Positions 1-13,643 of a stretch of DNA of 64,000 bases are shown here, piece by piece; the stretch's first letter is position 1; each line of letters starts with the position of its first letter. A program made the translations under genes and the position numbers. The DNA is from an uncultured Flavobacteriales bacterium. GTDB lineage: Bacteria > Bacteroidota > Bacteroidia > UBA10329. The stretch lies in the NCBI GenBank assembly GCA_937900875.1, contig CALCGD010000268.1, positions 4,334-68,333 on the forward strand, read 5' to 3'. The notes under the pieces are model-generated. The model had not been told where the DNA came from and searched no databases. It was given only the letters and a program-made list of their open reading frames with translations.

Positions 1-1373
1 TCAGACCTATAGTAGAACCGGTTTGGGTCATTCTCATCGTTAAACGTATAATCAAGTTCTAAACCACCATACGTTTTATTCATCTTTTCGCTAAGCGCAT
101 GTAGTTCTGTACTTAGCTTATCTGACCCAATTAGATAGACATAATTAGAATCAGGAGCGTGAGCTTCATCTATACGTCCTATCATGTCTACATTAAGATT
201 TGCCACTGTGTTTTTGAGCGGAAAAACTGGGTTGTCCGTATAGTACTCAGACCCTAGCAACCCTTTCTCTTCTCCAGAAACAGTCATAAAAAGCATGCTT
301 CTTTTCGGTCCATTTCCGTCTGCTTTCGCCTTCATAAACGCTTCGGCCAATTCTATTATCGTTGTTGTTCCTGAACCATCATCGTCTGCACCATTAAAAA
401 TCTCGTCTCCTTTTTTTCCAAGGTGGTCATAGTGAGCGGTAATTACAACCAACTCATCTGGTTTTTCACTTCCTTCCAAGTACGCCAACACATTTTCAGA
501 GATAAGTTCTTCCCTCCTTTTTTTAACAGTGATTTCGACCTTCTGCGGAACCTTAATACTAATTGATGTTCCAGTTTTAGAAATTCTCTTTTCTAAAACC
601 TCGTATCCGCCTCTTACGTTGGCCGCGTCTAAAAACTGGTTTGCTTTTTTAGAGCTTATATAGATTAGTGGAATCCCGCTTTGTTCTGCAGGGCTATCAC
701 CCAGCTCCAAATTTGGTCGCTTTATATATCTTCCATATTGAGAAACAGATGACGTTAGGTTGTCGTCAATTACCAACAATGCCTTGGCCCCTTTAGACCG
801 TGCAAGCTCAATTTTTAACGACCAGTCTACCGTCCAATCGCTCTTATCCTTACTCTTGGTGACTTGCGATACGCCTTTTCTGGTTACCGGTTCTCCAGCA
901 GAAATTAACAGCACTTTACCTTTTACATCAACCCCGTTATAATCGCTGTATTTTTCTGAATCTATGCCATAGCCTAAGTACAGAAGCTCGTCAGATTTAA
1001 CAACCATATCTCCAAATCCTGGGAAATAATACATGTCTTTTAAAAACCGCAAAGAATCTCCTCCTACCACAAGACTTACCGTATCGGGATAGGTTAGTTG
1101 CAACTTGAAGGGTTGGAAATATCCGTTCAGTTTTTCTATTGGCACAAAGCCAAATTCTTGAAAACGCTCCTTTATATACTCAGCCGCTTTTTTTTGCCCT
1201 GGTTGCCCTGTCTCACGGCCTTCAAAATTATCAGACGCAATAATTTCTAACCTGCTTCGTAGGTCCTTTACAGTTATCGTTTCAGCATATTTTACAGCCG
1301 TATGATTGGTTTGAGCCAAAGCCCCAACGCTGCTAAAAACCAGTGCAAGTAGTAACGGTAATCTTAACATGAA
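1..1373 (-). CDS. M28 family peptidase with PA domain; partial, C-terminus lies beyond the window start. Secreted.
   Basis: Reverse-strand translation from the ATG at 1373 gives a signal peptide (MLRLPLLLALVFSSVGALAQ), then a PA-domain-like region and M28 motifs (HYDHLG, DDDGSG, EEKGLLGS). There is no stop before position 1. Confidence 0.8.
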
Positions 1374-1798
1374 ATAGCAATTTTATCTACCCGTGTGGCG
1401 TGTCTTCCCCCTTCAAAACTGGTATTTAGAAATTTGTCTACACACTCGATAGCTGTTTTCTCAGATATGAATCTTGCTGGTAGCGAAAGCACATTCGCAT
1501 CGTTATGCAATCTAGTAAGTTCGGCAATTTCAGCAGTCCAACTAATTCCAGCTCTAACGTTGGCATATTTATTAGCAGTCATAGCAACTCCATTTCCACT
1601 GCCACAAATAATTATTCCAAAAGCTATTTCTCCATCATTAATGGCTTTTGCCAAAGGATGAATAGCATCAGGATAATCCATTCGGTCTGCCGTTGACGGA
1701 CCGAAGTCAGTAATTTTAATTCCTTTTTCAATCAATTCTTGTTTTACTCGCTCTTTTAGCTCAAAACCAGCATGATCGCACGAAATAGCAATGTGCAT
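1364..1798 (-). CDS. rpiB: Ribose-5-phosphate isomerase B
   Basis: 144 aa with RpiB/LacAB hallmarks (MHIAISCDHAGFELK, IICGSGNGVAMTANK). It overlaps the downstream M28 gene start by about 10 nt. Confidence 0.9.
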   Translation of the reverse strand: MHIAISCDHAGFELKERVKQELIEKGIKITDFGPSTADRMDYPDAIHPLAKAINDGEIAFGIIICGSGNGVAMTANKYANVRAGISWTAEIAELTRLHNDANVLSLPARFISEKTAIECVDKFLNTSFEGGRHATRVDKIAISC

Positions 1799-2314
1799 AT
1801 TGTGTTTTTAGTTGTTAATAACCTAATTCTAATATTTATTTAAAAAGACTGTAAATGCTAGTGGTAGCAAGGGTTTGTAAGTCTTTTCCAAAATTCTCAC
1901 TTATTCACATTAATTAGCGGTAAAACTAAATTGCTTGTTAACATCTTCTCAAACAAAAATTTGTGCCTTTGATTCTTTAATTGCAGTTGGGCAAATAGTT
2001 GGAATATGCAAACAAAACGATCGTAAAAATGTCAACAATCCACATATCAAAATCTGACCAACCTGCTGTTGTTAGTTACAAACAATTTCAGTTATGCACT
2101 CCTCGTTAATAAAAAGCTAACTGACTGATATTATGCAACAAACCAACTTTTAAACTTGTTTATTTCTTGTTAAGTAATGCTGATAAACTTGTTATGCAAC
2201 TTATTATTAAAGATGTTCTACACGAACTAACAAGCATATAATAATACCATAGGTTTTAAATAATCTCTTATTATATATTCTATAGAGTGTTCATCAAATT
2301 ATTAGGATTCTTGA

Positions 2315-3868
2315 ATGCAACTATCTTTATCGTTCTCAATGAAAAAATACTTCTCTGTCGTTTTTATTCTAGTCTGTAACCTAGGTTTGGTTATTGGGCA
2401 AGAAGCAGAATTTGTAAAATTCACTTACGAAAATGGTGCTGTTTCCAGCGAAGGTTACATGGTTAATAATCAACCAGAATTGTACTGGAAAACTTATTAC
2501 CCTGATGGAATGCTTAAATCAGAAGGCAATCGGTTAAATCACAAGTTAGATAGTATTTGGAAATTTTATGCACCTGATGCTACACTTACCAAAAGTATCT
2601 CCTACAGCGAAGGGCTAAAATCAGGTCTATCTCAATCGTTTTCTGAAGGCGGAATTCTTGTTCAGGAAGATACTTACAGAAGGGATATTCGTATTGGTGT
2701 GACTAAAAAATATTATGCTTCTGGCCAAATAAGTGAAACCATTCCTCTGGACACCCTTGATAAAGGAAAGGAACAAGGAATTGGGTATGAATATTCAGAA
2801 GAAGATGGGCGAATTACCGCTGTAATCGAATACAGAAATGGTTTTATTAGTGGTAGAGAGCGAATAAATAGAAAAGATAAATTCAATCAGAAACAAGGGT
2901 TGTGGCGCTATTTCTATGACAATCGACAAACAAAAGAGGAAGGGCGGTTTAAAAATGATAAAAGACATGGATACTGGAAAACATTTGATGATGAAGGAAA
3001 TTTGATAGAAACCTTCAAGTATGAAATTGGAATTCTCATCCCAGAACCAGAAGAGTTAGCTAAACTTGATATTAAGAGGGAATATCATTCAAATGCACAA
3101 GTAAAATCAGTAGGTAGTTACAGTAAGGGAGTGAAAGAAGGGGTGCATAGAGAGTATACACCAACAGGAGAAGTTACTTCAGCAAAAATTTACAGCAAAG
3201 GAAAAATAGTAGGTGATGGTATTGTAGACGCTGAAGGCAAACGACAAGGTCCCTGGAAAGAGTATTATGATACCGGTGAATTAAGAAGTGAAGGGAATTA
3301 TAAGAATGGAATTAGAGAAGGAACCTGGGTATTTTACTACACAGAAGGAAAAGAAGAACAAAGAGGGGCCTATCACAAAGGAAAGGTGGATGGAGAGTGG
3401 AAATGGATACATAGGAATGGTACTACTTGGAGAGAAGAAATTTTCTATGATGGTTTGGAGGAGGGACTTGCTATAGAATATAACGATACTGGTAAAGTAG
3501 TTTCAAAAGGTAATTACTTGTCTGGAGAACGTGAAGGGATTTGGTTTCTAGACTTAGGTGATGGCATAGAAGAAGGAAACTATGTCGCTGGACAACAAAA
3601 TGGTATTTGGAAATCGTATTACCTAGATGGAAAAATAAAATTTGAAGGAAAATTTGAGCAAGGATTAGAAGCAGGAACGCACAGTTACTACTATAATACT
3701 GGTCAAAAAAGTGTTGGCGGATTGTACAAGTTTGGCCAAAAAGAAGGAGATTGGGTATACTATGATGTTGCTGGGCTGATTACTCGAACAATAACTTATA
3801 AATTGGGAGTAGTTACCAAGGTTGATGGAGAAAGAATAGAACAACCAGAAAAAGTAGATGTGCGCTAA
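2315..3868 (+). CDS. Secreted MORN-repeat (variant 2, YwqK-like) protein. The true start is possibly at the MKKYF Met near 2339.
   Basis: Signal peptide, then more than 12 iterations of the G.W..YY.NG.l..EG.Y.NG...G.W motif. Its stop overlaps the start of the downstream histidine kinase. Confidence 0.75.
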   Translation: MQLSLSFSMKKYFSVVFILVCNLGLVIGQEAEFVKFTYENGAVSSEGYMVNNQPELYWKTYYPDGMLKSEGNRLNHKLDSIWKFYAPDATLTKSISYSEGLKSGLSQSFSEGGILVQEDTYRRDIRIGVTKKYYASGQISETIPLDTLDKGKEQGIGYEYSEEDGRITAVIEYRNGFISGRERINRKDKFNQKQGLWRYFYDNRQTKEEGRFKNDKRHGYWKTFDDEGNLIETFKYEIGILIPEPEELAKLDIKREYHSNAQVKSVGSYSKGVKEGVHREYTPTGEVTSAKIYSKGKIVGDGIVDAEGKRQGPWKEYYDTGELRSEGNYKNGIREGTWVFYYTEGKEEQRGAYHKGKVDGEWKWIHRNGTTWREEIFYDGLEEGLAIEYNDTGKVVSKGNYLSGEREGIWFLDLGDGIEEGNYVAGQQNGIWKSYYLDGKIKFEGKFEQGLEAGTHSYYYNTGQKSVGGLYKFGQKEGDWVYYDVAGLITRTITYKLGVVTKVDGERIEQPEKVDVR

Positions 3869-5693
3869 ATTAAAGCAACAAGAAAGCCCAACTCGCTATC
3901 AGAACTTGGTAGAAAGTTTACCAGTTGGTGTGCTAATTATCAAAGATGGCCTAGTTGATTACGCAAATCCGCATGCAATAAAAATGCTCGGTTTAGCGAG
4001 CATAGAATCTGGAATTATTAAACCAACAGAATTTCTACACCCGTCTTATAATAATGAGTTTGACCTGCTTTTAAACAACATTAAAAAGGGCAAAAATCCA
4101 GGCTTTATTGAACTTAAAGTTAGGGTTGCAAATCTTCGAACCATTCTTGATGTTGAAACAAGTGGTGGTCTTTTGGACGATGGTTCTATACAGCTATTGA
4201 TACATGATGTTTCCACACGGAAACAACTAGCGAGAGAGCAGCTTAGGGCTCAAATAGCTGAAGAAACAAACCTGCAGTTACAACGTGAAATTATTGAGCG
4301 TACTAAAGCAGAGAAAGAACTTCGTCATGCAAAACAGTATGCAAGAAGTATCATTGACAGTTCGTTAGATATGATTGTTGCTACGGACATAGACTACAAC
4401 ATAAACGAGTTTAATGCAGCTGCTGAGGAAACCTTCGGATATAGTAGAGAAGAGGTTTTAGGAAGTCCCCTGTCCATTTTGTTTTCGGACGAGGTAGAAA
4501 TGAAAAAAGTAGTTGGTCATATTACCAATCAAGGGTCTTTGGCCAACGAAATTATTAACCGTAAAAAGGATGGAACGTTTTTTATATCTTTTCTGTCAGC
4601 GTCAGTTTTAAAGAATGAGAAGGGAGATATTGTTGGAGCGATGGGTGTTTCGCGCGACATCACAGCAATTAAAAAAGCAGAAGAGGAACTTAGGTTAAGC
4701 GAAGAACGACATAGAGCAATCTATGACCAAGCCTACATTGGTATTGCTCGAATAGCCAAAATGGGTAGGTTTCTTTTGGTGAATGAAAGGCTATGTAGCA
4801 TGTTGGGTTATGAGGCCGATGAATTGTATAAAAAGACTTTTTATGAACTTGGCGTACCGGAAGAAGTAGAAGAGAGTTTAGTTGATTGGGATCAATTGCT
4901 TAGTGGAAAGATTAAAAATTTTTCTCGTGAACAAACTTATGTCCGTAAGGATGGAGATGTATTGAGCGCAAATGTCACTGTATCTTTGGTTCGTGACTCT
5001 AACGAAAATCCAAATTATTTTGTTGCTGTTTTCGAGGATATAACTGAGAGGAAAGAATACGAAAGTCAGTTAGAAGAGTCGATCAAAGAGAAAGAAGTTT
5101 TACTTAAAGAAGTACATCATCGCGTAAAGAATAATATGCAGGTGATTTCAAGTATCCTCAATTTACAATCGTCATATATTGATGATGAAACGGCTTTGGC
5201 TATTCTTCGGGAAAGTCAAGACAGGATTAAATCAATGTCTTTCGTTCACGAGAGTTTGTATCAGAGTAAGACCTTGTCGGAGGTAAATTTTTCAGAGTAT
5301 ATTCAGAATATTGCCCGTAATCTTTTTCATTCATATGGTAGACCGGAAGGAGGATTGTCGCTGGATTTTAATTTGGAGGAAATTTTCTTGAATTTGGATA
5401 CGTCAATTCCGTGCGGGTTAATCATTAATGAAGTGGTTTCTAATTCTCTAAAATATGCCTTTGAGGGTCGTAGAACAGGTCGGATTAACATAGATTTTTC
5501 TAGATTATCTGATGGTAGATTGAAACTTATTATAGGAGATGATGGTATAGGGTTACCAGCTAACTTCGATATAGAGAATGCGGAGTCGTTGGGATTGCAA
5601 CTTGTAACCACTTTGATTACTCAAATTGGCGGAGAGTTGGATATTGTAATAAAGGAAGGAACCAAGTTTAATATTCTGTTTAAAGAACAATAA
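3858..5693 (+). CDS. Cytoplasmic PAS-domain sensor histidine kinase (HisKA_2/HWE-type with HATPase_c)
   Basis: Coiled-coil plus PAS segments, an H-box (EVHHRVKNNMQVISSILNLQ), and ATPase G-boxes (IGDDGIGLP; GLQLV). No TM helices were seen. Confidence 0.85.
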   Translation: MCAKLKQQESPTRYQNLVESLPVGVLIIKDGLVDYANPHAIKMLGLASIESGIIKPTEFLHPSYNNEFDLLLNNIKKGKNPGFIELKVRVANLRTILDVETSGGLLDDGSIQLLIHDVSTRKQLAREQLRAQIAEETNLQLQREIIERTKAEKELRHAKQYARSIIDSSLDMIVATDIDYNINEFNAAAEETFGYSREEVLGSPLSILFSDEVEMKKVVGHITNQGSLANEIINRKKDGTFFISFLSASVLKNEKGDIVGAMGVSRDITAIKKAEEELRLSEERHRAIYDQAYIGIARIAKMGRFLLVNERLCSMLGYEADELYKKTFYELGVPEEVEESLVDWDQLLSGKIKNFSREQTYVRKDGDVLSANVTVSLVRDSNENPNYFVAVFEDITERKEYESQLEESIKEKEVLLKEVHHRVKNNMQVISSILNLQSSYIDDETALAILRESQDRIKSMSFVHESLYQSKTLSEVNFSEYIQNIARNLFHSYGRPEGGLSLDFNLEEIFLNLDTSIPCGLIINEVVSNSLKYAFEGRRTGRINIDFSRLSDGRLKLIIGDDGIGLPANFDIENAESLGLQLVTTLITQIGGELDIVIKEGTKFNILFKEQ

Positions 5694-5695
5694 TT

Positions 5696-6448
5696 ATGGC
5701 AAAAACAAGCGTACTTGTCGTTGAGGATGAGAGTATCGTAGCAAAGGATATACAAAACAGCCTAAAAAAACTTGGCTATGCTGTTCCTGCAGTAGTTAAT
5801 AGTGGTGAAGACGCGATTGATGCAGCCGGAGAACATCGTCCAAATCTGATCCTTATGGACATTATGTTGAAAGGTGATATTAGTGGTATTGAAGCAGCTG
5901 AACAGATTAAAAACCGGTACAGAATACCGGTTATTTTCTTGACGGCTTATGCAGATGAAAGCACATTGAGTAAAGCTAAAGTTACTGAGCCTTATGGTTA
6001 CATCATTAAGCCGTTTAAAGAGATTGACCTGCACACTTCAATAGAAATGGCTTTGTATAAGCACGGCAAGGAGCAGGAAGTCAGAAAGGAGCGTGATTTG
6101 TATTCCTCTATCGTTTTAGATAAGTCAGTTGAAGATTGCATATTCGTGAAATCTAATAGTCGGTTGGTTAAGGTTAAAACAAAAGAAATTTATTTCGTAG
6201 AGGCTTTGAAGGATTATGTCATCATTCAAACAAAGGATGCGAAGTTTACCGTTCACTCTACCATGAAAGATATGCTTACAAAACTTTCGAGCAGCGAGTT
6301 CCTTAGAGTGCATCGATCATTTATTGTTAGGGTTGACAAAATTTTAGCAATCGAACAAAATAATTTGGTTATTGAGGATGACAAAAAGATTATACCTGTA
6401 GGTGGTTCCTACCGAGATGAGTTGCATAGTCGATTGAAGTTTGTGTAA
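5696..6448 (+). CDS. Response regulator with CheY-like receiver and LytTR DNA-binding domain
   Basis: N-terminal receiver (VLVVEDE...LILMDIMLKGD...K), C-terminal LytTR region (IFVKSNSRLVKVKTKEIYFVEALKDYV...). It lies 3 nt after the kinase stop. Confidence 0.88.
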   Translation: MAKTSVLVVEDESIVAKDIQNSLKKLGYAVPAVVNSGEDAIDAAGEHRPNLILMDIMLKGDISGIEAAEQIKNRYRIPVIFLTAYADESTLSKAKVTEPYGYIIKPFKEIDLHTSIEMALYKHGKEQEVRKERDLYSSIVLDKSVEDCIFVKSNSRLVKVKTKEIYFVEALKDYVIIQTKDAKFTVHSTMKDMLTKLSSSEFLRVHRSFIVRVDKILAIEQNNLVIEDDKKIIPVGGSYRDELHSRLKFV

Positions 6449-6570
6449 CAGCCTTATTTTCAATAAGTTACATGTATAGGCATTAAAGCTCTATATTTCT
6501 CTGTAGAATAAAGATAAATGGATTTACATGGTCTGGCCCCAGGTAATCCGTAGGAAGCCTTTAGGTGCCC

Positions 6571-7485
6571 TTAAACGACCTTTTGAAAGACGTAGGTCAC
6601 GCTTGACGCCTTTTGTTTTTCTGATATCGCCCATAGGTTTGAAACGAGACCTATAATTAAAGCAGATCCCCACCCAATTACATTTTGAAGGAAACCTTTT
6701 TGACGTGAATTCTTTTCACTAAGCAGGCTGACGTAAAATGAATCAAACCACATTGGTTTGATTTGCTTTAAGATAAAGCCGTGTTTTTGTAATAAGGGCT
6801 CAATAGACTTTAGGTCAAAGTGATATAGATGTCTGGGTACATCATATGCGGCCCATGTTGTACCATAATGTTTGGCATCGTAAGATTGGTAATTCGGGAC
6901 CGCAATAATCAAAGTTCCTTTATCATTGGCTATTCGGCTGAATTCCGCTAGCGTTTCGTTGAGCGTATGAACATGTTCTAGTACATGCCAAAGGGTAATA
7001 ATGCTAATGCTATTAGAGTCGATTACACTAATACTTTCAATTAACTCAACGTTTGAACTTTTGTTTTTTATTCGTTCCCGCGCAGATAAATCTGGTTCAT
7101 ATGCGTAAACATACCAACCGTTTTTCTGAAGTTCAATGCTAAAATCTCCTGTACCTGCTCCGAAATCTAATGCGTTTTTTTGTTTCGAAAGGGAGTTTAG
7201 AAAGTTGATTTTTCTGCTAAGGGTGTAGCTTTTTACTACCCGGTATAAGGTAAAAAGCAGTCCAGATTTCGTATCTGTATGCGATACATATTCTGGGTTG
7301 TCGTAGTATTTTCCGATGGCCCCTGCTGTTGGGCGTGGGTTGGTGAAACAAAGACTACAGGATGAGCACCTGTCAATATTAAATTTGTTTTTAGAATAGG
7401 TGTAATCTATGGCGGAAATGGTTTTTACTAATTGTTCTGATCCGCATGAAGGGCAGAATTGAAGTTTTTCAAGAGATTGTTCCAC
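6571..7485 (-). CDS. Class I SAM-dependent methyltransferase with N-terminal zinc ribbon
   Basis: CxxC...CxxC near the N-terminus; SAM motif I (LDFGAGTGDFS); methyltransferase type 11/12-like core. Confidence 0.75.
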   Translation of the reverse strand: MEQSLEKLQFCPSCGSEQLVKTISAIDYTYSKNKFNIDRCSSCSLCFTNPRPTAGAIGKYYDNPEYVSHTDTKSGLLFTLYRVVKSYTLSRKINFLNSLSKQKNALDFGAGTGDFSIELQKNGWYVYAYEPDLSARERIKNKSSNVELIESISVIDSNSISIITLWHVLEHVHTLNETLAEFSRIANDKGTLIIAVPNYQSYDAKHYGTTWAAYDVPRHLYHFDLKSIEPLLQKHGFILKQIKPMWFDSFYVSLLSEKNSRQKGFLQNVIGWGSALIIGLVSNLWAISEKQKASSVTYVFQKVV

Positions 7486-7491
7486 GTGAAA

Positions 7492-9360
7492 CTATTTACC
7501 TAAATGAACTAAAAGTACCGATATGTCCGATGGGGATACACCGCTAATTCTGGCGGCTTGCCCGAGACTAGATGGCTTTATTTGGGTCAGTTTAATTCTA
7601 GATTCCATGGACAAAGATTTGAGGGAGCCATAATTGAAATCTGGATGAAGTTGAATGTTTTCAAACTTTAATATTTTTTCTGCGGAGTCCTGTTCTTTTT
7701 GAATGTATCCGCTGTATTTGGCCTTAATCTCCACCTGTTCAATCACTGCAGGGTCCTCGCTAATTGAGTGTATTGAATGACCCACAGATGGAATTGAATG
7801 AATCATAGATGGAAGGTCGACTTCTGGCCTTGTAATTAATGAATACGCTCGCAGTTTTTGGCTAACGACAGCACTGTTTTTAGATTTTAGGTATGCATTG
7901 CTTTCCGAAACCTCTAAGCTTAGTTTGCCTAGTGCCTTTTCAATTTGGAGGACATCTTCAATTTTAGCCTGTACATTTTTCAATCTTGTTTCCGATGCCA
8001 AGCCCAATTTGTAACCGAGATGGGTAAGCCTAATGTCTGCATTGTCTTGTCTCAATAAAATTCTATGTTCTGCTCTCGAGGTGAACATGCGGTATGGTTC
8101 GTCAGTTCCTTTGGTAATAAGGTCATCAATAAGTACACCTATATAAGCATCAGATCGTCCAAGGATGAACGGTGATTTACCGGATACGTTTTGATGTGCA
8201 TTTATACCAGCCATCAATCCTTGGCACGCAGCTTCTTCATAGCCGGTTGTGCCGTTTATTTGTCCAGCAAAGAAAAGGTTATTTACAATTTTTGTTTCTA
8301 ATGTATGTGTAAGTTGAGTTGGCGGGAAGTAATCATATTCAATAGCATATCCTGGTCGAAAAATTTTAGCCTTTTCAAATCCTTTTATTTCTTGTAAAGC
8401 TTGATATTGTACATCTTCTGGGAGGGAAGTAGAAAAGCCGTTTAAATAAACCTCTACTGTATCCCAGCCTTCTGGCTCAACAAAAAGTTGATGTGAGTCT
8501 TTACCGGCAAATCGTTCGATTTTATCCTCTATTGAGGGACAGTACCTAGGACCTAGTCCTTGGATTCTGCCGTTAAACATAGGCGATCGGTCAAAGCCGA
8601 GCCGAAGGGTATCGTGCACTTTTTCGCTAGTATAAGCAAGATGACAACTTCGCTGCGTAGTTAATGACGTGGTATTTGTGAAGCTAAACTTATTTGGGTT
8701 TTCATCTCCGGGCTGTTCTTCTAATACAGAATAATCAATACTTCGTCCGTCTATTCTAGGAGGAGTACCAGTCTTCATTCTTCCACTAGAAAAACCTAGT
8801 TTTTGTAGGCATTCGGTAAGACCAGTCGATGCCTTTTCTGCACTGCGACCTCCTCCAAAGTTTTTCTCTCCAATATGAATCAGTCCATTTAGGAAGGTGC
8901 CATTGGTAAGGATAACAGAACTTGATTCAAACGTCAATCCTAACGATGTTTTTACTCCGCTGATACAGTTGTTTATGGTACTAATAGAAACAACAGTGTC
9001 TTGCCAAAAATCAAGATTATCTGTTTGCTCTAATAACATTCGCCACTCGTAAGCAAATTTGTATCTGTCATTTTGGGTCCTGGGGCTCCACATTGCTGGG
9101 CCTTTTGAGCGGTTGAGCATACGGAATTGGATCATTGATCGGTCTGAGACGATACCAGAGTAACCACCTAAAGCATCTATTTCTCTAACAATTTGGCCCT
9201 TTGCTACTCCGCCCATTGCCGGGTTACATGACATCTGACCTATGGTGGCCATGTTCATGGTGATAAGGAGGGTTTTAGAGCCAAGGTTAGCAGCAGCAGC
9301 GGCAGCTTCACATCCTGCGTGTCCTCCACCAACAACAATTACATCATAGTGTTTTTGCAT
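7492..9360 (-). CDS. mnmG: tRNA uridine-5-carboxymethylaminomethyl synthesis enzyme MnmG (GidA)
   Basis: FAD-binding N-terminus (YDVIVVGGGHAGCEAA) and MnmG motifs across the 622-aa length. Confidence 0.95.
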   Translation of the reverse strand: MQKHYDVIVVGGGHAGCEAAAAAANLGSKTLLITMNMATIGQMSCNPAMGGVAKGQIVREIDALGGYSGIVSDRSMIQFRMLNRSKGPAMWSPRTQNDRYKFAYEWRMLLEQTDNLDFWQDTVVSISTINNCISGVKTSLGLTFESSSVILTNGTFLNGLIHIGEKNFGGGRSAEKASTGLTECLQKLGFSSGRMKTGTPPRIDGRSIDYSVLEEQPGDENPNKFSFTNTTSLTTQRSCHLAYTSEKVHDTLRLGFDRSPMFNGRIQGLGPRYCPSIEDKIERFAGKDSHQLFVEPEGWDTVEVYLNGFSTSLPEDVQYQALQEIKGFEKAKIFRPGYAIEYDYFPPTQLTHTLETKIVNNLFFAGQINGTTGYEEAACQGLMAGINAHQNVSGKSPFILGRSDAYIGVLIDDLITKGTDEPYRMFTSRAEHRILLRQDNADIRLTHLGYKLGLASETRLKNVQAKIEDVLQIEKALGKLSLEVSESNAYLKSKNSAVVSQKLRAYSLITRPEVDLPSMIHSIPSVGHSIHSISEDPAVIEQVEIKAKYSGYIQKEQDSAEKILKFENIQLHPDFNYGSLKSLSMESRIKLTQIKPSSLGQAARISGVSPSDISVLLVHLGK

Positions 9361-9846: not shown

Positions 9847-10248
9847 TTATCCGACTTTGAAAATCATTTCGACCTTAGTTCCGTTTTCTGAGAACTCAAC
9901 TTCATCGGCCAAGTGTTTCATTAGAAAAACGCCACGGCCACTAATCTTTTCTAGATTTTCAGGGTCAGTCGGGTCAGGTAAACTATCATGGTCAAAACCC
10001 TCTCCTTCATCGCGAACGCTAAAGGAAAGCCTGTCAGCGCGCTCAATAAATTCTAGGTGAACTTTTTTCTCTGGGTTTTGTCGGTTACCATGGTTTATCG
10101 CATTGTTAACTGCTTCAGTTACAGCGATAAGTATGTTTCCATAGTAGTCTTCGTCAACAGAGAATTTTTTACATACATCATCAACCAGCTTTTCGGCAAT
10201 TACGATGTTGTCGGCCTTTGAGTCGAAATTCAGGCTTTGTTTTTCCAT
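9847..10248 (-). CDS. GHKL-type ATP-binding protein (anti-sigma regulatory factor / Ser kinase-like)
   Basis: 133 aa with an N-box (EAVNNAINHGN) and a G-box-like segment (DEGEGFD). Its stop abuts the ybeY start. Confidence 0.7.
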   Translation of the reverse strand: MEKQSLNFDSKADNIVIAEKLVDDVCKKFSVDEDYYGNILIAVTEAVNNAINHGNRQNPEKKVHLEFIERADRLSFSVRDEGEGFDHDSLPDPTDPENLEKISGRGVFLMKHLADEVEFSENGTKVEMIFKVG

Positions 10249-10256
10249 TGGTCTAG

Positions 10257-13200
10257 TTATTCGACATGCTGTTTAAAGTACTCATCAACCATGTTCCGGT
10301 AGAACGGATTTAAGTTTGGAGGTACAGTTCTTAGCAGTTCAGTCTCATTATTTTTCCGTCTTATATACTCGAAAAATATCTCAGGGTTACCATAATCTTC
10401 ATTTTGTGCTTCTTTAGACTCTCTCCGCTCTTCTTGTTCCCTTTCTCTCTCTGCTTTTTCTGCCTCTAAGAGCTTCGTTAGAATTTCTTGTTGACGCATC
10501 AAGGTTTCTTGCGTAATCATTTTGTTTACGAGGTCGGTTTCAGTCTGCTCCATGAGCTCTTGTAGTTTTTTCATTTCTCCACCAGCCCCTGCACTTCCAG
10601 CTTTTCCGTCTTTTTTTAACTGAGATTCGTACTCCCTGGCCATGTTTCTTAAGGCCTCCTGTTGTGCCGCCATTTTTGCGAACTCTTTACTCATGCCTTT
10701 ATTTCCAGGAGACATACCGGGCTTATCGCCTGGTTTCTTTCCACCCGGACTCATGCCTTTTTTCATACTTTCCATCTGCTTGTTCATCTGCTCTTGCAGA
10801 CTTCGCATAGCGCCAGCGGAGGGTTTTCCGCTGCTACCTGGTTTATTACAAGAACCAGAACCAGGCATTGACGATGCCATGGCTTGCTGCATTTGCTGAA
10901 CCGTTTCACTTAGCATCAATGCTAGGTTGTTTATTGAGGTCAGGGCAAACTGTTGCCGCGACAAAGCATCTGAAGTCTTCCTATCCGCCATATTTTGGAT
11001 GGACTTCTTCATGTTGCTATTAACCGCTCTTATTTCCCGATTTACAATCGTTTCTATTTGTGGAAAACGCTTACTAAGTGCGTATAAAGAATCTTCAATC
11101 AATTTACTATCGTCTTTCAGCTTGAGCTGCTCTCGCGCCAAATCAGTGTACTTGGGATCGTTCTGATTGGTGATTTTTAAGGTGCTAATGAGTTTTTCTT
11201 CATCAAAAGACAGCGTGAGTAAATTCTCTACAATTTGTCGCAGCGCCTCTAAATCTTCTTGTTGCCCCTGCGCTTGCATTTGCATCATCATATTGCCCAT
11301 TTTTTGAGCCATGTTTTTCATTTGATCGGACGCCTTTTTCTGAGATTCTGACGCTTTTTTGTTCTGCTCTTTGTCTAGTTGTTCTTGACTTTCCTTTTGG
11401 CTGTTTTCAACCGATTCTTCCTCATTTTCAAAGTCCTCCATATCGTTAGGACTTTCTAAATCGCTGTTCTTTTTTTCTAAATCGTCTAACTCTTTCTTTA
11501 TATCCTCGAATTTCTCATTCAGTTTTTCTTGTTTATCTGAAAGTTCTTCATTCTCACCCGTTTTTTCTTTTGTCTCTTCAGATAACTCTTCTTGTTCTTT
11601 CGCTAACTCTTCTAAACGTTCCATCGTTTGTTCAAGTTTTTGTTCAAACTCTAATTGCTTAAACAATTCGAGGCTACGATCAAGCTCTTTTTCAAGGTCT
11701 TCATTGCTGAGTTCTATGTCTTCAAGAAGTTCCTGAGCCTTGTCTTTGGTCATTTCCTCCATCAATTTTTCCATTTCATCAAACAACTTCTTCATGTCTT
11801 CAGACATAACCTCTTCAAATAGTTTTTCAAGTTGTTTCTGCTTTTCAACCAACTGCGGGTCAAACTCCATCATCTCATTCATTTTGGAGTTTTTCTGTTC
11901 GCTCTTTTGTTGAACGTCTTCCATGCGGTTTTGCAGGCTTTTTTGCATTGCTAAAACCTGTTTCATTTTTTCTTTATCCTCCCAATCAAGATTCTTTTTG
12001 TCGAGCAAGTCTTTCTGAAGATCTTCAATTGACTTCTTCATTTCCTTAGCCATTTTCAGACTTTCAGTAAGGTTCTCTTTCAGTTTTTCGCTTTGTAAGT
12101 CATTTTCCTTGGCCAATTCGTCCATCGTTGCAATGCGGTAAGTGCTTTTTTCGGTCCGACTAGACTTGCTTCCGTTTACTCCATCATTGTCCCATACTTC
12201 GAAGTAGTATTCAATGGCATCACCTGGCACAAGTCCGATAGAAGAAAGGTCCCAGAAATGGTAAAACGACTCTGACCGTTGACCCTTAGAAACATTTAGA
12301 GCGACCTCGGATAATTCATTTGACTTATCCAACTTCTTATACTTGAAAACCAAAGAGGAGAAGCCGTAATCATCTTTAATCTGGCCGTTGAAATACATCC
12401 GCTTTGGATTTAGCGAATCTTCTACACCAATTACCGAAATAGATGGGTATAAATCTGGAATAATGGTTACCGTATAACGAACAGAATCACCAGAATTGAT
12501 GAATTTATTTGAACCGACTAACGCATAGTTTGTGCTTCTAGAGAATCGTTGAGAAAAACTAAATCCGTTTTCAGAAGTCCGATCAACGTTTTGCTTTTCC
12601 TTACCGAAAAACACAGTGACGGCTTCTGTTTTCGAAGTACTTAACTCCCAATTTACCTTAGTCCCTTCTGGAATCAAAAGGTCTCCTGTATTGGACAGAG
12701 ATTCATCCGTTCGTCCAATGTATTTTGGGAATTCAAGTGATATATGGAAGCCAACCAAATTCGGTTTTGGTAGAACGCTAAGTGTATGAGTTGGTGAGTT
12801 AAACCCGTTTCCTTCAAACTTAAAATCAACGTTTTCTCTTGGTTGATGAAAAACGTATGAGAATTTGGCTGCACTTAACTTGTTCATTAACGTGCGTTTG
12901 CCAGCTACCTCCACATAAAGATCGTTCGGAACTTCGTTTCCATCAAGAGACACAAGGAGTTCAAAATCTTGCATTTCAATTGTGCTTAGTTCTTCGTTTT
13001 GAATATTGAAAAGAAACGGGGCAAGATTTTCAAATGCCGTTCTGTGATTAACAATTCTTCTAGTTCCTTCTCTAACCAAAGTGGGCCAAAGCAGCAAAAG
13101 ACCAATAAGCAACAAAAGAGGAGGTAAAGCATACCGTAAAAAATGCCTGTTTTCTTTTAAATCGATGGCTGTTGAAAATGGAATAGGCTTTAGTTCGCCT

Positions 13201-13643
13201 ATTCGTTGGTCGATACTTGCTAATAGGAGTTCGGAACTAGAACCCTCAGCTGTTTGCTGAAGCTGAAGCGTATTTAGCAAGCGATCCTCAATGTTCGTAA
13301 AATGCTTACCAACAATTGATGCTGCTTCTTCGTAAGAAATACCTGGGCGGAGTTTCCAAATTCGAATAAGTGGCTCAATTATCCATCGGCCCATGGCAAG
13401 AGCAGAAATACCAATTAGAGAGTAGAAGAAAACGGTTCTACCAGTGATACCAAATCGAACAAAATATTCGAGAGAAACAAAGGCAACAAAAAATGCAACC
13501 AGCAAACCTGTTGTCAACAAAACCCCACGAATTAGCTGATTCAGATAAAACTTCTGAATAAACTCATCTAGCTTTTGCTTTAATTGTAATCCGTCTTCGC
13601 TCATTTTTAACTCAACGCTACTAACATTTCTTTGTTGCTGCAA
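10257..13643 (-). CDS. Large membrane protein with very long E/K/Q/M-rich coiled coil; DUF4175-like (family assignment recalled from memory, not verified)
   Basis: 1128 aa with N-terminal TM helices, a central globular region, about 450 aa of low-complexity charged coiled coil, and Gly/Pro/Ser-rich linkers. It is divergent from gltX. Confidence 0.7.
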   Translation of the reverse strand: MQQQRNVSSVELKMSEDGLQLKQKLDEFIQKFYLNQLIRGVLLTTGLLVAFFVAFVSLEYFVRFGITGRTVFFYSLIGISALAMGRWIIEPLIRIWKLRPGISYEEAASIVGKHFTNIEDRLLNTLQLQQTAEGSSSELLLASIDQRIGELKPIPFSTAIDLKENRHFLRYALPPLLLLIGLLLLWPTLVREGTRRIVNHRTAFENLAPFLFNIQNEELSTIEMQDFELLVSLDGNEVPNDLYVEVAGKRTLMNKLSAAKFSYVFHQPRENVDFKFEGNGFNSPTHTLSVLPKPNLVGFHISLEFPKYIGRTDESLSNTGDLLIPEGTKVNWELSTSKTEAVTVFFGKEKQNVDRTSENGFSFSQRFSRSTNYALVGSNKFINSGDSVRYTVTIIPDLYPSISVIGVEDSLNPKRMYFNGQIKDDYGFSSLVFKYKKLDKSNELSEVALNVSKGQRSESFYHFWDLSSIGLVPGDAIEYYFEVWDNDGVNGSKSSRTEKSTYRIATMDELAKENDLQSEKLKENLTESLKMAKEMKKSIEDLQKDLLDKKNLDWEDKEKMKQVLAMQKSLQNRMEDVQQKSEQKNSKMNEMMEFDPQLVEKQKQLEKLFEEVMSEDMKKLFDEMEKLMEEMTKDKAQELLEDIELSNEDLEKELDRSLELFKQLEFEQKLEQTMERLEELAKEQEELSEETKEKTGENEELSDKQEKLNEKFEDIKKELDDLEKKNSDLESPNDMEDFENEEESVENSQKESQEQLDKEQNKKASESQKKASDQMKNMAQKMGNMMMQMQAQGQQEDLEALRQIVENLLTLSFDEEKLISTLKITNQNDPKYTDLAREQLKLKDDSKLIEDSLYALSKRFPQIETIVNREIRAVNSNMKKSIQNMADRKTSDALSRQQFALTSINNLALMLSETVQQMQQAMASSMPGSGSCNKPGSSGKPSAGAMRSLQEQMNKQMESMKKGMSPGGKKPGDKPGMSPGNKGMSKEFAKMAAQQEALRNMAREYESQLKKDGKAGSAGAGGEMKKLQELMEQTETDLVNKMITQETLMRQQEILTKLLEAEKAEREREQEERRESKEAQNEDYGNPEIFFEYIRRKNNETELLRTVPPNLNPFYRNMVDEYFKQHVE

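Follow-up and report, generated by a model that had tools for sequence, protein, structure and literature searches.

In this work we analyzed a 64,000-nucleotide (nt) stretch of contig CALCGD010000268.1 (assembly GCA_937900875.1) from an uncultured Flavobacteriales bacterium, called here the window. We revealed in it a conserved trio of genes that encode a MORN_2 repeat protein with a predicted signal peptide (below, the MORN protein), a soluble PAS histidine kinase and a REC-LytTR response regulator. The same trio was found in well over 100 sampled loci from uncultured Bacteroidia of freshwater, marine and soil origin. Its recurrence in dozens of species-level genomes means that the arrangement seen in the window is not a chance juxtaposition. 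We propose, with moderate confidence and from sequence comparison, that the kinase senses an internal cue and controls the LytTR regulator, while the exported MORN protein would be a co-expressed periplasmic product and not the sensor of the kinase.

The three genes are co-directional (plus strand) and occupy positions 2315–3868 (MORN), 3858–5693 (kinase) and 5696–6448 (regulator) in the open reading frame (ORF) listing of the window. An initial annotation of this DNA had noted that the stop codon of the MORN gene overlaps the start of the kinase gene, and the raw sequence bears this out, with an overlap of 11 nt. It had also placed the regulator directly after the kinase, which is correct, but with a spacer of 3 nt, whereas the raw sequence has 2 nt (kinase TAA, then TT, then regulator ATG). 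The overlap itself is all that can be read from the DNA; translation of the MORN and kinase genes may be coupled. An internal promoter separating the two genes, which according to the same annotation would speak against their association, was not detected: the genes overlap, and no Bacteroidetes-type −7 box TAnnTTT(G/A) is present in the 3′-terminal 460 nt of the MORN gene or the 3′-terminal 300 nt of the kinase gene. The −7 consensus used here is the general one for Bacteroidetes promoters. The lack of such boxes in the gene ends, the overlap, the 2-nt spacer and the tight spacing kept in relatives, in which the gap between the MORN and kinase genes is mostly from −4 to +19 nt, point to a single transcript, so that the three genes presumably form one operon.

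Conservation of the three-gene locus

To describe the distribution of the trio we used two samples. The first one was anchored on the MORN gene: one genome per GTDB species was scanned with the MORN alignment, which gave 80 loci, and four more were added from exact look-ups, resulting in 83 distinct loci. They were scored by tblastn/blastp and ORF calls, and a locus was regarded as assessable for the absence of a gene if at least 3 kb of downstream sequence was available; six of the 83 were too short to judge. In 53 of the 77 assessable loci the MORN gene is followed, at a distance of −44 to +48 nt from its stop codon, by the gene of a HisKA_2 kinase and then by that of a REC-LytTR regulator.

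The second sample was used for the reverse test. The regulator of the window was of no use as a query for it, since only matches of at least 82% identity were listed. Metagenome contigs were scanned instead with a regulator alignment whose lead sequence was a divergent one, which retrieved regulators 50–72% identical to that of the window. In this sample, the gene directly preceding that of the kinase encodes a MORN orthologue in 42 of 45 assessable loci. Among the three exceptions, one locus (L146) has the order rpiB, kinase, regulator without a MORN gene, and the two others (L144 and L153) contain rpiB and the regulator alone. Thus, conservation of the trio in related genomes, which the initial annotation had proposed to check, holds in both directions; kinases or regulators without a MORN neighbour, which it had named as possible evidence to the contrary, do exist but are rare. 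The same order (rpiB, MORN, kinase, regulator) was also found in a very abundant marine lineage (350 collection blocks).

The linkage reaches down to about 35% identity of the MORN proteins and 50% identity of the regulators. In the MORN-anchored loci the identity to the proteins of the window is about 70% for the regulator, about 55% for the catalytic half of the kinase and about 42% for the MORN protein. Regulator orthologues are 50–91% identical across all linked loci, with invariant motifs LMDIMLKG and EALKDYV. The MORN proteins constitute an orthologous family of full-length members (about 510 aa) spread across Bacteroidia. The adjacency of kinase and regulator genes is kept in about 95 loci; their products are a putative cognate pair.

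The positions of the main features are given in Table 1.

Table 1. Genes, domains and sequence elements of the studied region (positions in the window)
Feature	Position	Strand	Remarks
rpiB (ribose-5-phosphate isomerase B)	1364–1798	−	divergent neighbour; Pfam LacAB_rpiB, 181.7 bits
Conserved intergenic block 1, TGTTAACATCTTCTCAAACA	1936–1955	+	run of invariant columns in the 7-genome alignment
Phased CTTGTT direct repeats	2155–2196	+	at 2155, 2166 and 2188; spacing 11 and 22 nt; candidate operator
Bipartite element TTCTACAC-gaact-AACAAGC	2216–2235	+	window version of TTTTACAC-N6-AACAGCC; candidate operator or promoter element
−7-like box TATCTTTA	2322–2329	+	Bacteroidetes type TAnnTTTG; 9 nt before ATG 2339; within the ORF counted from 2315
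Predicted signal peptide MKKYFSVVFILVCNLGLVIG	2339–2398	+	predicted signal peptidase I cleavage before Gln21
MORN_2 repeat protein gene, product predicted to be exported	2339–3868	+	509 aa from ATG 2339; 517 aa from ATG 2315
MORN stop/kinase start overlap ATGTGCGCTAA	3858–3868	+	11 nt; kinase ATG 3858, MORN stop TAA 3866–3868
Sensor histidine kinase gene	3858–5693	+	611 aa; stop TAA 5691–5693
PAS domain 1 of the kinase (Pfam)	3894–4043	+	aa 13–62
PAS domain 2 of the kinase (Pfam)	4344–4661	+	aa 163–268
PAS domain 3 of the kinase (Pfam)	4740–5057	+	aa 295–400
HisKA_2 (PF07568) of the kinase	5109–5336	+	aa 418–493; 101.3 bits; motif EVHHRVKNN
HATPase_c (PF02518) of the kinase	5418–5684	+	aa 521–609; 34 bits
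REC-LytTR response regulator gene	5696–6448	+	250 aa
REC (PF00072) of the regulator	5711–6043	+	aa 6–116; 83.7 bits
LytTR DNA-binding domain (PF04397) of the regulator	6161–6436	+	aa 156–247; 70.1 bits
Methyltransferase gene	6571–7485	convergent to the trio	flank on the regulator side
mnmG/gidA	7492–9360		next after the methyltransferase gene

Properties of the MORN protein, the kinase and the regulator

The product of the first gene belongs to the MORN_2 repeat proteins (Pfam PF07661, 87.3 bits at a cutoff of 29.6). Its start had been placed at position 2315 in the initial annotation, and the near-identical contig FLOH01000021.1 (GCA_900089805.1) likewise has the longer 517-aa form beginning at this ATG in its public annotation. 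We consider ATG 2339 the probable true start (the protein would then begin with the peptide MKKYFSVVFILVCNLGLVIG, followed by QEAEF), because (i) in an alignment of 15 sequences the N-termini of the homologues coincide with Met9 of the window protein, and (ii) the −7-like box TATCTTTA lies inside the longer ORF. This box is the sole one of the −7 type in the region 1799–2345 and is kept as TATCTTT(A/G) in loci L001, L009 and L005. The 517-aa model probably includes eight spurious codons and swallows the likely −7 box.

An AlphaFold model built from 70 homologues (pLDDT 94.2) contains an N-terminal helix (residues 2–18) and about 40 beta strands, organized in two hairpin blocks (24–230 and 244–495) with a short linker between them. 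According to the model, the number of MORN hairpins would be about 20; the initial annotation had described a protein with a signal peptide, which the N-terminal helix supports, and with more than 12 repeats, a number that the model refines. With the profile of the same 70 homologues, the MORN regions of three eukaryotic proteins in the PDB were matched (SET7/9, RSPH1 and MORN1), and a Foldseek search with the model gave a TMt of about 0.6 to MORN1. The top Foldseek matches, Rhs, teneurin and Tc toxins, had TM-scores of at most 0.17 and were dismissed as generic beta-hairpin repeats and not homology. Besides the repeats, the family has conserved features outside them, e.g., the loop INRKD..QKQG.

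The N-terminus of the MORN protein is composed of a basic n-region (KK), a hydrophobic core of 15–17 residues and a small residue at position −1. It is directly followed by Gln21, which is at least 90% conserved in the 70 homologues and invariant in the 15-sequence alignment, including lineages without a linked kinase (P0113 and P0107) that keep the same signal. In Bacteroidetes, a glutamine after the cleavage site marks substrates of signal peptidase I, the so-called Q-rule (PMC5837995; PMC10653852). Since the N-terminal helix and the conserved Gln21 fit this rule, the MORN protein may be exported by the signal peptidase I route. No conserved lipobox cysteine was found in the MORN homologues, and no Pfam match to the C-terminal domain of type IX secretion system substrates was obtained. 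As judged from these features, the protein is most likely soluble and periplasmic.

A different location can also be imagined. If the N-terminal stretch were not a working export signal, the MORN protein could act in the cytoplasm, where it would serve as a scaffold for the kinase or the regulator or inhibit one of them by binding. It would then have a direct physical route to the soluble kinase, and it would resemble YwqK-type MORN_2 proteins, which neutralise a partner protein, and eukaryotic MORN proteins such as those matched in the PDB; both kinds are cytoplasmic binders. However, all three parts of the signal, the conservation of the glutamine typical for signal peptidase I substrates of Bacteroidetes and the retention of the same signal where no kinase is linked contradict this possibility, which we regard as highly improbable.

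The second gene encodes a kinase of the HisKA_2/HWE class with three PAS domains. In agreement with the initial annotation, it has no transmembrane (TM) segment: in a Kyte-Doolittle scan no 19-residue window of the protein reaches 1.6. The same scan revealed no TM segment in 49 of the 53 linked kinases of the MORN-anchored trio loci. The length of the linked kinases varies from 482 to 2181 aa, while the lengths of the MORN protein and of the regulator are constant. Genes that seemed to intervene between MORN and kinase in some relatives proved to belong to the kinase as its N-terminal extensions; thus, loci L016, L036 and L015 encode multi-PAS kinases of 1010, 1153 and 1419 aa, respectively. 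The 611-aa kinase of the window corresponds to the conserved C-terminal core (PAS-PAS-PAS-HisKA_2-HATPase). The variable length of the kinase next to a constant MORN protein argues against docking of the latter on a fixed sensor domain. The third gene encodes a member of the LytTR family of response regulators, with REC and LytTR domains.

Conserved elements upstream of the MORN gene

A leader of 516 nt (1799–2314) separates rpiB from ATG 2315. Its alignment with the leaders of six close relatives (seven genomes in total) revealed three conserved blocks, at 1936–1955, 2157–2185 and 2216–2239. The pattern of the second block is TGTT-N7-TGT followed by TGAnA. The hexamers CTTGTT/AACAAG occur five times in the leader versus 64 times in the whole 64 kb, and none of 5000 shuffled sequences contained five or more of them.

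The third block contains a bipartite element, whose general form is TT(C/T)TACAC-N5-6-AACA(A/G)(G/C)C and which was found upstream of the MORN gene in some of the lineages with a linked two-component system (TCS). For the analysis of k-mer enrichment we compared 81 non-redundant upstream regions of TCS-linked loci with 25 regions of TCS-less loci. The word GTTTTACAC, with one mismatch allowed, was present in 33 of the 81 TCS-linked regions (9.6 in shuffled sequences) and in one of the 25 TCS-less regions; the results for words containing AACAGCC were similar. The strict form TTTTACAC-N6-AACAGCC was revealed in 13 TCS-linked regions, in no TCS-less region and never on the reverse strand. The element is always located on the strand of the MORN gene, 45–160 nt upstream of it. 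A looser pattern had 11 matches in both strands of 2.16 Mb of fetched DNA, nine of which precede a MORN gene on the same strand by no more than 400 nt; in the 64-kb window there is exactly one match, at 2216–2235. The upstream repeats and elements are good operator candidates, and their assignment to the regulator of the window is a speculation.

Several other candidates were rejected. The classical LytTR arrangement of 9-bp repeats about 21 nt apart is represented in the window by a 22-nt pair (CTTGTTAAG at 2166 and CTTGTTATG at 2188), but the second copy is not kept in relatives. Simple motifs (CTTGTT, TGTT-N7-TGTT and others) did not separate TCS-linked from TCS-less loci, and the cluster of exact CTTGTT hexamers is peculiar to the window, since close relatives do not keep it as such. 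A 26-codon leader ORF at 2030 shares only the residues MSTI with L001 and has no ATG in L009, as seen by eye in the 7-genome alignment. An Rfam scan (E ≤ 1) and a tRNA/tmRNA scan of positions 1–8000 gave nothing, so that no known RNA family was found in the leader. The scan for sigma-70 promoters (22 versus 20.2 in shuffled sequences) and terminators (eight versus 4.0) gave counts close to those of shuffled sequences, and the plus-strand terminators within the operon lie in coding sequence. The consensus is, besides, wrong for Bacteroidetes, and the scan was uninformative.

It should be mentioned that an A/T palindrome, TTCTTTTT..AAAAAGAA(T), was observed about 20–30 nt downstream of the AACAGCC half-site in a number of TCS-linked loci (L014, L020, L028, L093, L124 and others); it is not present in the window. 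The word AAAAAGAAT was found in 11 TCS-linked loci and in none of the TCS-less ones. In the window, the sequence TTGTGTAACAGCCTTA at 6441–6456 spans the stop codon of the regulator gene and holds the AACAGCC half-site word known from the upstream element of other lineages, possibly by coincidence.

Further along the window, two genes on the minus strand form a pair common to the window and L001. One of them (9847–10248) adjoins ybeY and encodes a 133-aa HATPase_c_2 protein, anti-sigma-factor-kinase-like; the other (10257–13643) encodes a 1128-aa DUF4175 protein, in which a long low-complexity stretch is highly charged and rich in Glu, Lys and Gln.

Proposed role of the MORN protein and comparison with known systems

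The proposed mechanism can be outlined as follows. The trio would be a vertically inherited three-gene operon of Bacteroidia. The MORN protein would be exported by the Sec pathway, processed by signal peptidase I and reside in the periplasm as a soluble array of about 20 beta-hairpins. The kinase most likely reads an intracellular cue, e.g., redox state, a metabolite or a cofactor, because its input part consists of PAS domains stacked in variable number (three in the window and many more in relatives). It would phosphorylate the regulator, which would change transcription; the candidate targets include the upstream region of the operon itself, with its lineage-conserved and position-specific repeats. 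Since the MORN gene is the first one on the putative common transcript and its stop overlaps the kinase start, the MORN protein would be synthesized along with the kinase and the regulator and would serve the system in the periplasm, as a product or effector and not as the ligand-binding sensor of the kinase.

In a neighbour-joining tree of the MORN proteins, the TCS-less loci form one large clade, labelled mostly as Bacteroidales, Lentimicrobium and Draconibacterium, and one small clade (L004, L068 and L073), with L083 as a further case. This grouping suggests that the linkage is old, vertically inherited and was rarely lost or gained. The asymmetry between MORN genes without a TCS (22 of 77 loci) and TCS without a MORN gene (3 of 45) agrees with a regulatory module appended to the former.

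A number of observations weigh against our proposal. First, the functional link is deduced from gene order alone, and the MORN gene can do without its partners: neither kinase nor regulator was found downstream of it in the 22 loci just mentioned, mostly from one Bacteroidales-like clade, and in two more of the 77 (L057, 9588–10331, and L076, 9657–10400) the regulator follows the MORN gene directly, without a kinase. Second, the conserved order extends to the housekeeping genes rpiB and nadA, which have no plausible tie to the MORN protein, and this weakens guilt by association. An rpiB homologue is located divergently upstream of the MORN gene in most loci across Bacteroidia, with a spacer of about 450–600 nt (1364–2338 in the window), and nadA (quinolinate synthase) lies directly upstream of it on the same strand in 34 loci, 17 TCS-linked and 17 TCS-less; in L010 (6063–9539) the gap between nadA and the MORN gene is 8 nt. 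Gene order alone is therefore no proof of a functional link. Third, autoregulation via the bipartite element is weakly supported, the strict form being limited to 13 of 81 TCS-linked loci. Despite about 70% identity of the regulator across lineages, the element lacks the classical LytTR layout, with its repeats spaced by about 21 nt. Fourth, three linked kinases have an N-terminal block of about six TM segments (L036, 9580–10200; L008, 3337–3900; L084, 9566–10180), which leaves room for contact between periplasm and kinase in at least those three lineages.

The first two points raise the question of whether the linkage is synteny without shared function. The MORN protein would then be a core periplasmic protein with a role of its own, and the TCS would lie downstream of it in a slowly rearranging neighbourhood (rpiB, nadA, MORN, kinase, regulator), perhaps using read-through and regulating unrelated genes elsewhere. 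The MORN genes that stand alone, the equally conserved rpiB and nadA neighbours and the absence of the upstream element from part of the linked loci are all in line with such a scenario, and the much higher conservation of the regulator than of the MORN protein (about 70% versus about 42%) suggests that the main constraints on the regulator lie elsewhere. It does not account as easily for the close spacing of the MORN stop and the kinase start, which remain only a few nucleotides apart in about 95 loci although kinase length changes greatly, nor for the rarity of TCS without a MORN gene, and the methyltransferase gene and mnmG shift between lineages while the trio stays whole. These three features argue against pure coincidence. 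The distribution of the upstream k-mer (33 of 81 TCS-linked versus 1 of 25 TCS-less regions) also speaks against it. We consider synteny without shared function unlikely, although it retains appreciable weight.

The fourth point bears on the possibility of three-component signalling, in which the periplasmic MORN protein would assist the kinase in sensing or modulate it, in the manner of ExoR with ExoS and CpxP with CpxA. Its ligand or folding state would be relayed directly to the kinases with six TM segments and via a membrane partner to the soluble ones. The tight and ancient linkage in both directions agrees with this idea, as do the three TM-containing kinases themselves, two of which (L036 and L008) represent a sister lineage of the short-kinase clade of the window; the INRKD..QKQG loop of the MORN protein suggests a specific binding surface. 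Yet 49 of the 53 linked kinases, including that of the window, have no membrane segment and hence no contact with a periplasmic protein. The TM blocks have short loops only, and Pfam assigned no family to the N-termini of these three kinases; we regard the block as a membrane input domain outside the classified families that is fused to the PAS stack. Moreover, no conserved fourth gene that could provide a membrane relay was revealed in the locus, and a whole clade of MORN orthologues has no linked kinase. Accessory sensing by the MORN protein thus appears quite unlikely to us. Slightly more doubtful still is the specific version in which the MORN protein takes part in signalling as a true third component, whose periplasmic state (ligand-bound, folded or envelope-attached) feeds back on the PAS kinase, by direct contact in the case of the six-TM kinases and through a membrane partner or a diffusible product in the case of the soluble ones.

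The initial annotation had argued that the kinase cannot sense periplasmic signals itself and had suggested that the MORN protein could be a target of the system rather than a sensor. The prevalence of kinases without TM segments favours this reading, which is tempered by its dependence on gene order, by the MORN genes that occur alone and by the three six-TM kinases.

TCS of Bacteroidia other than the hybrid kinases of gut species are poorly studied, and almost no functions have been assigned to bacterial MORN_2 proteins. The trio combines a LytTR regulator that is about 70% identical across orders, a freely expanding and contracting PAS stack and a constant exported MORN protein, and provides a testable handle on both the role of an exported bacterial MORN array and the targets of LytTR regulators in the phylum. 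If the MORN protein is in the signalling path, this would be a new way to couple the envelope to a soluble kinase; if it is a true third component, the trio would represent a new class of envelope-to-cytoplasm relay, based on a MORN array and widespread in Bacteroidia.

The initial annotation had stated that the trio is not a described signalling module. Consistent with this, no published description of it was found in the searched literature on MORN/YwqK/PF07661 proteins and on LytTR regulators with HisKA_2 kinases in Bacteroidetes; MORN2 proteins are discussed there only for invasion by Fusobacterium (PMC4222103). One apparent match to ‘MORN’, in a coevolution paper on F. johnsoniae, was the word ‘morning’.

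Among known systems, the kinase of the window is similar to PhyK and the LOV kinases (EL346/LovK), which are also cytoplasmic proteins composed of PAS input, HisKA_2 (H-box HHRVKNN) and HATPase_c. PhyK is the kinase of the alphaproteobacterial general stress response. The PhyK and LOV kinase models were the nearest NCBIfam models for the kinase and the PhyR REC model for the REC domain of the regulator, but all scores are far below the cutoffs (112 versus 750, 107 versus 450 and 102 versus 240). Thus, the kinase does not belong to the LOV blue-light kinases (NF052306, 107.2 bits at a cutoff of 450), and no NCRFLQ-type LOV cysteine motif is present in its translation. In addition, the output of the window system is a LytTR transcription factor and not PhyR or a single-domain regulator, and it is linked to an exported MORN protein.

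The gene order of the trio (exported product, kinase, LytTR regulator) is the same as in agrBDCA, comCDE and plnABCD. However, the exported product of those systems is a small peptide pheromone, which a polytopic HPK10-type membrane kinase senses, whereas the window encodes a 509-aa repeat protein and a soluble HisKA_2 kinase. The size of the upstream product and the kinase without TM segments place the trio outside the Agr/Com-type peptide quorum-sensing cassettes. AgrA, a LytTR regulator, recognizes paired direct repeats ahead of P2/P3, in front of its own operon (PMC4227749). The agr-type repeats are about 21 nt apart, in contrast to 10–11 nt in the window.

The MORN protein shares its repeat of 22–23 residues with YwqK-type immunity proteins, the MORN2 proteins of Fusobacterium and the LIC20035-family adhesin of Leptospira. 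The YwqK antitoxin is small and cytoplasmic, and its gene adjoins that of a YwqJ/LXG-type toxin. The MORN protein differs from YwqK in being about three times longer (509 aa), in the predicted signal peptide and in having no adjacent toxin gene; with rpiB and a histidine kinase gene as neighbours, it is not the antitoxin of a YwqJK module. The name ‘YwqK antitoxin’ given to some homologues is an automatic label, and no toxin gene was found nearby. The match to the LIC20035 family adhesin model (NF033566) is only partial and reaches 119.1 bits at a cutoff of 250.

LytS-LytR and BtsS-BtsR (YehU-YehT) have a REC-LytTR output regulator, as in the window, but their kinases are 5TM-LYT membrane proteins with a His_kinase domain (PF06580), in contrast to the soluble HisKA_2 kinase described here, and the regulator of the window scores 60.6 on the BtsR model (cutoff 246) and 52.9 on the LytR model (cutoff 375). 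Finally, in the ExoR-ExoS/ChvI and CpxP-CpxA systems a kinase-regulator pair is genetically tied to an exported protein, as in the window, and ExoR is a repeat protein too. Kinases of the ExoS/CpxA type have periplasmic domains that are bound by the accessory protein, whereas the kinase of the window has no periplasmic domain. What sets the locus apart from all these systems is that the presumed two-component operon has a constant MORN partner, predicted to be exported.

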